Shown here: positions 27,891-54,452 of the stretch, one piece after another
Numbering within the stretch: the first letter of the stretch is position 1
How the letters are laid out: each line of letters opens with the position of its first letter
Assembly: GCF_036365525.1 (NCBI RefSeq)
Contig: NW_027140515.1
Location: forward strand, 558,001-622,000
Length of the DNA stretch: 64,000 nucleotides
Direction of reading: 5' to 3'
Source: Heterodontus francisci
Taxonomy: Eukaryota
Position numbers and translations under genes: made by a program
Notes under the pieces: model-generated
The model's input: only the letters and a program-made list of their open reading frames with translations
Database searches by the model: none
Told to the model about the DNA's origin: nothing

Positions 27891-28102
27891 GTAAAGGTCA
27901 CTGTTCAGCGTCCATTTTCTCACCAATTGCCGCCCACTCTGTATCTAACCCCGTTTTTCTTTTTGTGGCCTTTATACCCCAGGCCCCTTTTATATCTGTT
28001 ATGTCGAGGGGGGCCTTTATTCCTCAGGCCCCCTTTAAATACATATTTACATTTTTAAAATAACTTTATTAAAAGACAGATAAATAACCCAAAAACTCAA
28101 AT

Positions 28103-31100
28103 TCAAATGCCATTCTCGGCGTCGACGGTGCACTCCAGTCCCTGCGGTGCCCACCGGTCGCGGAAGGCCTCAAGCGTGCCGGCGGACACCGCATGCTCCC
28201 TCTCCAGGGACACCCGGGCGCGAACGTAACCGTGGAAGAGGGGCGGGCAATTAGGGAGGACGGCCCGCAGCCTGGACCTGTGAATTGCCACCTTGGCCAG
28301 GCCCAGGAGCAGACCGACGGGGAGATCCTCCTCCCGGCCCACGCCTCTCCGCACCGGGTGCCCAAAGATCAGCAGCGTGGGACTGAAGTGCAGCCAGAAC
28401 TTGAGGAGCAGCCCCTTCAGATACTCAAAGAGGGGCTGCAACCTCGCACACTCCGTATATTTGTGAAACACGGACTCGTCCAGGCCGCAGAAAGGACAGG
28501 CGGCCTGGGAGTCCGTGAACCTACTTAAAAGTCTATTGCACGGGACTGCTCTGTGCAGCACCCTCCACCCCAGGTCCCCGATGTAAAGGGGGAAGACTCC
28601 CATGTAGAGAGACCTCCATCAGGGTTTCCCCTCGCCGGCAGAAGGCAACGCGGACCGCCAGGGCGTGTCCGGCCGGCTGACGAGGGCGAGGAAGTGGAGA
28701 GTGTGCGGGAGCAGCCCGTACAGGAAACCCCTCCGCGCCGATTGGAATGGCAAGGAGGGCATTTCCGAGAGGCGGCTCGGGTGGTGCGGGAACGGCTCCC
28801 GAGGAGGATTTCAGGGCCTGGGTCCGATGAGCAGTTCCGGCCGAGCGGGAGTCAGCTCGGCCAGGAGTGCTCCGCACTCCCGAGCCCCCTCGCCACCCGC
28901 AGTGAGGGGCGTCCCGGGGGTTTCGGCTACTCCTCCGCCCGCCGGACCGTCCCCGGAGTCGGCCGCCCGGACAGCCGAGGCGCTCTCCTCCGCCGGCGGG
29001 GGAGCGCCCTGACTGGAGGCGACCATGTTCCAGACTCAGAATAGATCCCGGTAAAAGACAGGCAACTCCCTCAGAGAGGCGCGGCTAACGGACTCCACCG
29101 GGAGCTGCGTGTCGTCTTGAAGGCAGTGACACTGGCGGAAAAAATACGTCGCCAGCGCACACCATCTGGGAGGACGCTCGACGTACAGGTATCTCTGCAG
29201 GGTCCGAAGGCGGAGAGTCGCAGCCTGGGTGCGGACGCACACCAGCGACTGACCGCCCTCCTCGATCGGGAGACTCAGGACCGCGGCAGAGACCCAGTGT
29301 TTCCTCTTGCCCCAGAAGAAATCGACGAGTTTCTTCTGGATCTTGGTGACAAATACAGGGGGCGGGGCCAAAGTGACCAACCGGTACCACAGCATGGAGG
29401 CCACCAGTTGGTTTATGACCAACGCTCGGCCCCTGTAGGAAAGCACTCTGAGCAGTCCTGTCCAGCGCCCAGCCGAGCGGTGACTTTCGCATCCAACTCC
29501 TGCCAGTTTGCCGGCCAGGCTTCCTCAGCGGGGCTAAGGTGGACTCCCAGATAGAGGAGGTGCGTGGTGCTCCACGCAAAAGGTGTCATCTCCTCCGGCA
29601 GGGAGTCCACCCGCCACTGACCAACCAGGAGTCCGGAACATTTCTCCCAATTGATCCTCGCGGAGGACGCGGCAGAAAAGGTCTGCTGGCAGTCGCGCAT
29701 CCTCCGCAAGTCAACGGGATCTGTGATTGCGAGGAGCACGTCGTCGGCGTAAGCCGAGAGGACGGCCCGCATGGCCGGCTCGCGCAGAGCCAATCCCGTC
29801 AACCTCCTGCGAAGCAGGCACAGGAAGGGCTCCACGCAGATGGTATACAATTGGCCGGACATGGGGCACCCCTGACGCACTCCTCTCCCAAATCGAAGGG
29901 GCGCCGTCAAGGACCCGTTAACTTTGACTAGACACTCTGCGGCGGCGTATAAAAGTCGGACCCGGGCCACGAAATGCGGCCCGAGTCCGAAAGCGCGCAG
30001 AGTCCCGAAAAGGTAATCGTGATCCACCCTGTCGAACGCCTTCTCCTGATCGAGGGAGAGAAAGGCGACCGACTGACCAGTCCTCTGGGAAAGATGGATC
30101 AGGTCCCGGACCAGGTGGATGTTGTCCTGGATGGACCGCCCCGGGACCGTGTAGGACTGGTCGGGGTGGATCATGTGGGCCAGCACGGAGCCCAGGCGGG
30201 TAGACATAGCCCGGGCAAAGATCTTATAATCCGTGCTGAGAAGGGAGACCGGACGCCAGTTTTTAAGCAGGCGGAGATCGCCCCTCTTCGGCAGCAGGAC
30301 GATGACCGCCCTGCGCCACGAGAGGGGCATCACCCCGGTCGCCAGGCTTTCCCCCAGGACCCGCGCGTAATCGTCCCCCAGGACGTCCCAGAACGCCCGG
30401 AGGAACTCCACGGTCAACCCATCCAGCCCTGGGGATTTGCCCCTCGAGAGCTGGTGGAGGGCGCCAGTCAGCTCCGCCAACGTGAGCGGAGCCTCCAATC
30501 CTTCGGCGCCCTCCGGGCTGACCTGCGGCAGGTCCTCCCACAAAACTCTGCGCGCATCCTTGCTGGACGGATCCGGAGACAACAACGCACTGTAATAAGT
30601 CCGGACCAGGAGGCCCATTCCCTCCGGATCCGTGATGGAGGATCCGTCGTCGGCCAGCAGCTCAACGAGCTGCTTACGGACCCCCTGCCATTTTTCCAGC
30701 GAGTAGAAGAAGGGTGAGGTGCGGTCCAAATCTTCCAGTATCTGGATCCGCGACCTCACATACGCGCCTCGGGACCCTATGAGCTGCAGGTCCCTCAGCG
30801 CGCCCTTCTTCTCTTTGTATGCCTGCCACAGGGCCGGGTCCGCGACGGCATGACCGAGGCGGGACTCCAAGTCGAGCACCTCCCCCTCAAGGCGCCCGAT
30901 CTCCTCTTCCCGCCTCTTGGTCGACCCCTTCGCGTACTCCTGACAGAAGACGCGGATGTGAGTCTTGCCCACATCCCACCATAGCCTCAAGGAGGGGAAG
31001 CCCCCCTGCTTCCTTCTCCAGTCGGCCCAGAATCGACAGAACGAGTCCCGAAATCGCTCGTCCTCCAGCAGCCGGTTGTTAAAGTGCCAGTACGCGGACC

Positions 31101-31823
31101 CCGCCCGCGTGCGGAGCGGAGTAAACTCCGCCCACACCAGGCGGTGGTCCGAGCACGGCACCAGCCGCATGGAGGCCGCCGAAACGCGGGAGACGTACGC
31201 CTGCGAAATGTAGAGGCGGTCGATTCGCGACCCCCCTCCTCCAGACCTCCACGTGAAGGCGCTGGAGTCGGGATGGAGATTCCGCCAGACGTCCACCAAG
31301 TTAAGGGAGCTGATCAGTCCCCTCAACTTCTCCACCGACGCTTGGCCGCGCTGGGGACCGGAGCGATCCCCCACCTCGAGGGTGCAGTTAAAATCCCCCC
31401 CCCGAGGATGATGCACTCGCCGCTATCGATGGAGCTCAAGAGAGCGGACACTTCTTCAAAGAAGCGCGCTTGCAACGCGCCGGGCCTGGGCGCGTACACG
31501 TTCACAAAGTGGAGCGGCACGCTACCCAGGCGAACGGCGAGGTGGAGCAAGCGGCCCGGCACTAGCTCCTTGACTCCCAAGATCTCCGGCTGAAAAGTCG
31601 GGGCCAACAAGATAGCCACCCCACTAGAAATAGGGGTGAGGTGACTCATGTAGACCCCACCCTGCCACTCCAGGAGCCAGGTGGCTTCGTCTCCCGGAAC
31701 GGTGTGGGTTTCCTGCAGAAAGCTCACCGCGTATCTCCCTTCCCTAAGGACTGAGAGATTGTGAAATCTGCGGTGAGCCCCTCTGCTGCCGTTGATGTTG
31801 AGGCTGGCTATGGTTATCTTCAT
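28103..31823 (-). pseudogene. Tx1 copy 1 ORF2 (endonuclease + reverse transcriptase + C-terminal zinc knuckle), disrupted
   Basis: Motifs SLNING, FLQETH, GDFN, RIDR, SDH, KSPGLDG, LDQEKAFDRV, GVRQGCP, YADD and CPFC..H..C. Frameshifts in C-runs at ~31400 and ~29470; in-frame TGA at 29036, 28811 and 28619. Confidence 0.9.
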
Positions 31824-53563: not shown

Positions 53564-54187
53564 GGCTCAAGAGCCAAACCTACCCCCAATTTGCAGGTAA
53601 GCAAGCAAACAAAGAAACCAACTAGGAGGTTTGGGGAGAGGCTGAGGGTATACAGGAAATGGGAAAGACAGGCTGCAAGCGATGACTTTGCTTTTTTTCC
53701 CCCTTAAAGGGTGGTACTCAGAGCACTGTAAACACTTCTGGTCTTCTGGTTGTGGGAGGGGTCTTCACCTGGGTCATCCGAAAGCTGCCCAGGCTCTAGT
53801 TCGATCCTTATGTCTCTATTAGCCAGGCAGCTTCAGCTGACTCAGGCTGGCCAATTGGGGTGGGGAGGGAGCTTCCCTGCAACTTTAGTGCAACTGCACA
53901 GCTCCCTACAGAATTGTATAGCCCCCCACCCCTTGTTCTTCTGGCCTCTTTCACCTCCCACAACAGTCCAAATGAAATGAAAGTTTGGTGCTCGACACCC
54001 ACCTCGAAATACAGCCTTTTTCAAAGTCTTTCCTCCTCTGCAGCAAAAGTTGTTGAAAGGTTTTTTGCAGTTCCCTCCTCAGCTCTCCCTCTCCAGCAGC
54101 AACTGACTGCAGCACTGTCAGCTGCACCTCGTTGAGGCACTCAGTATTCCCAATCAGAGAGGAGCCAATCCCCGTTTTTTTTTTTTT

Positions 54188-54452
54188 GGAGCTTTACTCT
54201 GTATCTAACCCCCGTACTGTACCTGGCCTGGGTAGTGTTTGATGGGGACAGTGTAGAGGGAGCTTTACTCTGTATCTAACCCCCGTACTGTACCTGTCCT
54301 GGGAGTGTTTGATGGGGGACAGTGTAGAGGGAGCTTTACTCTGTATCTAACCCCTGTCCTGGGAGTGTTTGATGGGGGACAGTGTAGAGGGAGCTTTACT
54401 CTGTATCTAACCCCTGTACTGTACCTGTCCTGGGAGTGTTTGATGGGACAAT
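54188..54452 (+). repeat. ~70-bp minisatellite (Tx1 target repeat), ~4 units; left part at 47895-47940
   Basis: Same unit as 34587-34808; the array is interrupted by Tx1 copy 2. Confidence 0.92.

Follow-up and report, generated by a model that had tools for sequence, protein, structure and literature searches.

Tx1L of Xenopus laevis (ORF2 protein P14381, YTX2_XENLA) is the closest named relative of the element examined here, and the element resembles it in having two open reading frames (ORFs), an APE endonuclease with a reverse transcriptase (RT), and a multicopy, non-genic target (PMC1950540). Keno, Kibi, Koshi, Tx1-Mar, Tx1-9_AMi, and the Tx1 families labelled 'Sat' share with it a preference for multicopy targets, tandem insertions at one site, and the mobilisation of short interspersed nuclear elements (SINEs) into the same target. 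A figure legend in the same source lists satellites among the known Tx1 targets (PMC4494074), so a repeat as target is not new in kind. We analyzed 64,000 nucleotides of Heterodontus francisci DNA (contig NW_027140515.1, positions 558,001 to 622,000 of the forward strand; hereafter the window), which hold two copies of a Tx1L-like long interspersed nuclear element (LINE) beside a 69-bp minisatellite, together with copies of this LINE elsewhere in the 6.0-Gb genome. We consider it very probable that this recently multiplied LINE inserts mostly at CCCCG^T of the dispersed minisatellite (the caret marks the insertion point), and that it also carries pieces of the repeat to sites of unrelated sequence; read-through (3' transduction) is the likely route, and such delivery would provide the element with new targets.

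A fixed stock of host repeats is commonly assumed to restrict target-specific retrotransposons. An element that copies its own target elsewhere would lift this limit, and it lets one see directly how a minisatellite can arrive at thousands of unlinked loci, which in most cases has to be inferred. This LINE family is young, with open-frame copies, landings in introns, and a SINE and other RNAs placed at the same point, and its unusually short targeting loop provides a natural test of site choice by APE-type endonucleases. Among the target-preferring Tx1 families in the accessible portion of PMC4494074 we found no description of this repeat, of a shark family, or of an element carrying its own target. 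A search of the open literature, covering titles and the beginnings of abstracts, returned no work on the 69-bp repeat, none on the target of a shark Tx1 element, and none on target-specific elements that move their own target. We regard the novelty of both target and transduction as provisional.

Two full-length copies share one junction

The original prediction placed two full-length Tx1-group elements in the window, each at one base of the repeat. Their coordinates and junctions proved exact (Table 1). Both copies were decayed, Tx1L-like, on the minus strand, and 89.6-91.3% identical to each other; copy 1 was 92% identical to L125, a genomic copy with both frames open. Their tails stood at ...TCTAACCCC(C)G^T of the 69-bp minisatellite, the 3' junctions reading ACTCTGTATCTAACCCCG^T and ...AACCCCCG^T as claimed, and the 5' junction read GCCAAT^CCCCG at both copies. 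Comparison of the two loci bore out that their flanks were unrelated outside the repeat, and within the 64 kb the repeat was confined to two places, both beside elements. Removal of copy 1 restored a repeat-unit junction, as had been predicted. Removal of copy 2 gave no unit junction and left CCCCG-T13-GGAGC..., a separate tail with a 27-nt partial unit, which probably arrived as a repeat fragment by transduction or retroposition. The claim that the leftmost unit is the one occupied held for the window copies and failed as a rule, several genomic copies having units on the tail side.

Identity, size, and age of the family

ORF2 contained APE and RT domains. In ORF1 the zf-CCHC match was weak, below the Pfam cut-off (E 0.04, L125 ORF1), with the CCHC spacing visible. 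This layout, ORF1 with a zinc knuckle and ORF2 with APE endonuclease and RT, matched that of the Tx1 clade, and the poly(A) tail, 5' truncations, and target-site duplications are further traits of that clade. The closest named ORF2 was Xenopus Tx1L (52% identity across 89% of copy 2; 50% for the entire ORF2 and likewise for the endonuclease alone), which scored 1036 bits versus 263 for human L1 ORF2p, the latter with a different query copy and database. Overall, the nearest ORF2 proteins came from horn shark (93%) and stingray (73%), which marks the host as a cartilaginous fish. A quick ORF2 tree, with 21 rows from one hit list, no outgroup from other clades, and the two partial cartilaginous-fish proteins left out, placed the element with Tx1L, turtle, and sturgeon proteins in an 8-row set with a Shimodaira-Hasegawa-like approximate likelihood ratio test (SH-aLRT) value of 100. 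The predicted Tx1-group identity was thus supported by both ORF2 similarity and the phylogeny with Tx1L.

Membership in the Tx1L family proper was considered and rejected on the differing junction and the 7-residue loop. The target here is a free 69-bp minisatellite, whereas that of Tx1L is the DNA transposon Tx1D; the nick is followed by TGCT or GCTG rather than AGTT; and the specificity-linked loop has 7 residues (WRSGGGG) rather than 11 with RDGH. The shark family also differs in its many off-target copies and in a duplication of 10-15 bp, that of Tx1L being 23 bp.

The family comprised at least 1,217 copies by an exact 27-nt motif of the 3' untranslated region (UTR). Both frames were open in 4 of 39 full-length copies, and one clade among the copies had terminal branches mostly below 0.5%. 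The open-frame copies and short end branches therefore show recent activity, and the family is young. Related subfamilies that are 70-88% identical and have other 5' UTRs shared the GCCAA(T/C)CCC.G-repeat junction (L072, L073, L077, L088, L152, L154, L157, L162, L182, and others), so the target preference predates the young family. One insertion occurred with the same flanks on two contigs (L141 on C485, L148 on C49), and we count it as a duplication or uncollapsed allele instead of two independent events.

The 3' UTR (e.g. window 27954-28075, L158) held one to four repeats of a 46-bp unit, GGGGCC...GGCCCC, whose arms enclose an AATAAA-like hexamer, and copies of the element terminated at several alternative points in the 3' UTR, mostly 6-15 nt beyond a hexamer. 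Short pieces of the 5' end (17-198 nt, from the element or a related subfamily) were found with a tail at the target in L023, L038, L152, L164, L168, and L197. Transcripts that began at the 5' end and stopped early may have given rise to them. The transcript start would map at or upstream of CGGGGATTGG.

Preference for the 69-bp minisatellite

The commonest natural unit of the repeat was 69 bp. An exact 21-nt motif gave at least 27,223 units, which at 69 bp each amount to about 0.03% of the genome as a lower bound. Among the top 30 matches to the 3' end of the element, one of them a window copy, the repeat lay within about 100 bp of the tail in 29 by BLAST and in all 30 by eye, with four labels corrected by eye; 27 adjoined the C-run of the repeat directly, and 3 adjoined a short CCCG-ending piece inside a repeat site. 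With so small a share of the genome in the repeat, the association is far beyond chance. At the 5' end, all 39 copies sampled (39 of 40 matches, the window copy omitted) read GCCAA(T/C)CC.., after which came the repeat (27) or another tail (12).

Since the top-match samples favored young copies on small contigs, a census was taken of all 32 exact-motif copies on contig C1. At 5.8-18.5 Mb (n=20), 16 copies adjoined clear repeat, 2 degenerate repeat, 1 the 5' end of an element, and 1 only TAACCCA. At 42-276 Mb (n=12), 1 copy adjoined repeat without a leading tail, 4 stood at unrelated sites with a tail-led piece of the repeat, and 7 had no repeat. Pre-existing repeat or an element end thus received 19-20 of the 32. 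Against the value of more than 20% of flanks in one sequence type that PMC4494074 gives for target-specific families, we found 19-20 of 32 on C1 and 30 of 30 among the top matches; by this measure the family counts as target-specific. The insertion point was confirmed as a preferred one, at the boundary between the C-run of the repeat and T. A nick defined to one base was not, because the T may belong to the target or to the tail.

One alternative is that the repeat is a terminal repeat encoded by the element, or that both accumulate passively at repeat-rich chromosome ends. Element and repeat did cluster near contig ends, and a target-like pentamer stood at the 5' end of the element. The junctions nevertheless fell at one point of the unit and in one orientation, exact empty junctions outnumbered tailed ones (4,858 versus 1,908), showing that the repeat is not merely attached to the element, and many copies had no repeat at all. 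With a fixed junction and element-free arrays, this alternative is largely refuted, and we give it very little credence. A resemblance of the hairpin units of the 3' UTR to the repeat was not significant, as 805 of 2000 shuffles and 61 of 84 other windows of the element scored as high.

Insertion junctions and the endonuclease

True target-site duplications measured 10-15 bp. Where truncated copies rejoined the repeat, 23 of 24 did so between -16 and +14, and 10 of 24 at -11 to -16; 53 other alignment ends, which include subfamily divergence points and later insertions, did not rejoin it. Full-length copies lacked the 10-15-bp duplication. Their 5' pentamer had five or more C in 1 of 88 copies versus at least 127 of 413 unit junctions, and read CCCAG in 23 of 88 versus 9 of 413. 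In 8 of 26 copies with both ends, by manual count, the pentamer was unlike the 3' flank beyond CpG decay. Judged from these sequences, the element itself is the likely source of the CCCCG at the 5' ends of full-length copies. The CCCAG variant was rejected as a marker of element lineage, being scattered over the tree.

We propose that the ORF2 protein (ORF2p) would nick at or beside CCCCG^T, with reverse transcription primed on the poly(A). For truncated copies and foreign RNAs the junctions display the resulting 10-15-bp duplication. A full-length complementary DNA ending in CCCCG would pair with the target overhang and yield a precise junction, itself open to re-targeting; such pairing would explain both the precision and the frequent tandem copies.

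Foreign-looking inserts also stood at the nick point of the repeat, and 5 of 31 had 12-15-bp duplications, two of them with private variants copied (Table 1). They appear to be site-directed retrocopies or orphan transductions. Because these non-element RNAs reached the same point with 12-15-bp duplications, targeting does not depend on repeat homology in the copied RNA, and they lend indirect support to an endonuclease that may selectively nick this point. The catalytic motifs of the endonuclease aligned with those of L1 ORF2p. Its beta6-beta5 loop, a region tied to target choice and one in which glycine replacement cost L1 its activity according to PMC1950540, read T-WRSGGGG-S exactly in 26 of 39 copies and as close variants in 10 more. 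In nearly all aligned relatives, as in Tx1L, the loop has 11 residues.

Transduction of the target repeat

On-target tails were followed by a partial repeat unit at 78 junctions versus the element at 127. Long duplications were rejected as the source of such pieces: compared with the left flank, 23 long pieces of tail and partial unit were not target-site duplications and 1 was similar to one; 5 were ambiguous, and 34 gave no information. Of 128 de-duplicated junctions, 38 were within the duplication range, and 63 of the other 90 ended 26-51 nt before the nick, that is, 5-30 nt beyond AGTAAA on the element-sense strand. AGTAAA is a variant poly(A) signal. Transcripts would often read past the element tail into the repeat and be polyadenylated downstream of its AGTAAA. 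Element-tail-repeat-tail units of this kind were observed as stacked partial units on-target and as duplication-bounded inserts off-target.

The off-target form was examined in 24 tail-led blocks, each with a left flank that was either doubtful or unrelated. In 13 of them a repeat-carrying insert lay at an unrelated site inside a 10-15-bp duplication with 0-2 mismatches (Table 1), in the order duplication, poly(A), repeat, (poly(A), element), duplication; control 12-mers gave 0-2 of 30 matches per non-repetitive locus. Four of these loci (L230, L231, L240, and L243) had been selected before their far ends were fetched, and all four had the duplication. Twelve inserts included the element, and one was an orphan of about 4 units without it (L201). 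The truncated element end adjoined the duplication in 11 of 13, and in L083 a 110-bp foreign piece intervened. Inserts L081, L084, L201, and L240 held intact or near-intact empty junctions, and new targets were therefore delivered.

We interpret the inserts, from their structure, as 3' transduction of the element's own target. As in L1 transduction, element, poly(A), downstream flank, and second poly(A) lay within one duplication, orphan forms lacked the element, and an inversion of the twin-priming type was found (below). Unlike in L1, the transduced flank is the preferred target, so the landing site itself is copied. A 2013 review states that no L1 transduction of a microsatellite had been reported by then (PMC3812793). 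The repeat is thus more than the passive landing pad of the original prediction, since the element itself moves it. As a separate observation, the insert at L020:1260-2070 had the inversion, a duplication of 14 bp, and an A-rich filler of 11 nt.

Contrary evidence and the spread of the repeat

A body of results counts against the proposed reading, on targeting, on transduction, and on the spread of the repeat. In the C1 census 12 of 32 copies were at unrelated sites, and in a deliberately chosen mid-chromosome sample (n=20) 13 copies had no repeat nearby, 6 a tail-led piece, and 1 plain repeat. Strict site specificity, as predicted, was therefore not upheld; where the repeat is dense, targeting was very strong, and in other regions it was leaky. 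Little more than C^T(T/G)G was common to 13 off-target sites, 11 of which had T at +1; because this T may reflect pairing with the poly(A), the cut position is uncertain by a base or two. The loop, glycine-rich and four residues shorter than that linked to the specificity of Tx1L, is not predicted by a model of pure loop readout.

The short loop and weak consensus would fit RNA-assisted targeting, in which a read-through RNA bearing the repeat downstream of an internal poly(A) anneals to the nicked strand, so that a fairly loose endonuclease gives precise insertion. Read-through products were common, and co-transcribed target RNA is said, in PMC4494074, to strengthen the targeting of R2 and related elements. 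We nevertheless think this alternative improbable: foreign RNAs without the repeat reached the same point with clean duplications, transduced RNAs that carry the repeat often landed off-target, and the wild-type Tx1L endonuclease alone is described as nicking almost only its own target (PMC1950540).

Regarding transduction, the AGTAAA association had a binomial p of 5e-5 with a window picked after the data were seen and events that are not independent, and T runs in the repeat stand where the poly(A)-site peaks fall. Deletion of target sequence could account for some of the long partial units found on-target. The duplication was weak or uninformative in 3 of the 24 off-target blocks (L020; L082, with 9 of 12; and L189, inside another tandem repeat), and the duplication scan of 8 more gave nothing (L113, L124, L138, L139, L150, L159, L194, and L216). 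None of the transductions was traced to a source locus, the transduced flank being a high-copy repeat.

As to spread, only 19 of 145 repeat blocks, which are often fragments, had a leading tail, so most arrays bear no trace of LINE delivery. Element-free arrays without a tail also occurred (L107, L108, and L111). Four comparison runs, contigs whose RNA status is a guess, were used for presence only: in run X8, from another organism, the repeat was present and the 5' part of the element was not found at 88% or more, and contigs of organism B held element-repeat joints and tail scars. For these reasons (few tail-led blocks, tailless element-free arrays, and the repeat in X8), LINE delivery holds for a subset of the repeat and not for the whole repeat family.

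These observations suit a passive repeat visited by a plain sequence-preferring Tx1 element, where transduction is incidental, DNA-level processes do most of the spreading, and delivered pieces are rarely reused. The 126 blocks without a leading tail fit this view, as does the frequency of 3' transduction in L1 (PMC3812793). It is at odds with the interior arrays of C1-C2, where 4 of 6 examined were tail-led (Table 1) among 8 arrays found by an empty-junction search without selection for tails, and with the repeat piece carried by 6 of 19 off-target mid-chromosome copies. We hold this alternative to be a serious one, its chances somewhat short of even; it is compatible with our preferred account of targeted insertion and transduction except in the importance of seeding.

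In that account, delivered empty units would be reused as targets, a candidate step. In its fullest form the LINE would be the main disperser of its own target minisatellite: off-target inserts deliver empty units, the units expand into arrays, the arrays are colonised, and 5' ends and insertion scars create further sites and satellite variants, so that LINE and repeat propagate each other across shark genomes. We advance this self-seeding cycle tentatively, as something rather less than an even prospect. Independently, insertion scars (a tail and partial unit, about 46-54 bp) at L062-L068 (G000:C1:9681245-9682069) were amplified into new tandem arrays, the sequence being seen for L062. Regular pattern spacing suggested similar clusters at C47:2215969-2217377, C46:20683925-20684395, and C10:113904598-113909431.

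Host genes and other features of the window

The intron that holds copy 1 belongs to a Rab7-like gene, and a KLF-like zinc-finger exon lies downstream of copy 2; each copy is antisense to its host gene. The gene labels are names that we presume from reading the translations. An Rfam scan of the window gave 0 hits.

Table 1. Features of the window and groups of genomic loci (window positions, or loci where an L number is given)
Feature	Position or loci	Strand	Remarks
Copy 1, full-length Tx1L-like LINE	27954..34586	minus	poly(A) tail at 27954, 5' end at 34586
Copy 1 ORF1	31856..33898	minus	open, 680 residues, CCHC knuckle
Copy 1 ORF2 (APE endonuclease and RT)	28079..31823	minus	two frameshifts
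Partial repeat unit, 18 bp	27936..27953	plus	ends where copy 1 inserted
69-bp minisatellite, 3.1 units	34587..34808	plus	5' side of copy 1; first CCCCG likely element-borne
Copy 2, full-length Tx1L-like LINE	47941..54169	minus	shortened 3' UTR, ORF1 frameshifted, ORF2 with deletions
Partial repeat unit, 46 bp	47895..47940	plus	ends where copy 2 inserted
Second insert at copy 2 site	54175..54214	minus	T13 tail and 27-nt partial unit
69-bp minisatellite, about 3.8 units	54188..54447	plus	5' side of copy 2
Rab7-like exon	27765..27891	plus	upstream of the intron with copy 1; from translation
Rab7-like exon	34858..35205	plus	downstream of the intron with copy 1; Pfam Ras E 2e-32
KLF-like C2H2 zinc-finger exon	54488..55359	plus	downstream of copy 2
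Non-element inserts at nick point	L049:1888, L087:1518, L090:802 and 1518, L164:1518		oriented coordinates; SINE-like and other polyadenylated sequences
Duplication-bounded blocks	L080, L081, L083, L084, L200, L201, L208, L218, L220, L230, L231, L240, L243		
Tail-led interior arrays	L082/L120, L084, L201, L273		

Two long arrays of a 33-bp unit occupied 35257-36471 and 44270-46973 of the window. The second led into a body at 47030-47300 that we take to be SINE-like, which suggests that the 33-bp minisatellite arose by expansion of an internal SINE segment. Very long GA-rich arrays based on AGAGAGAGACCCGGGAT extended over 4645-22046 and 60210-63413, and they account for the long pseudo-ORFs of the minus strand.

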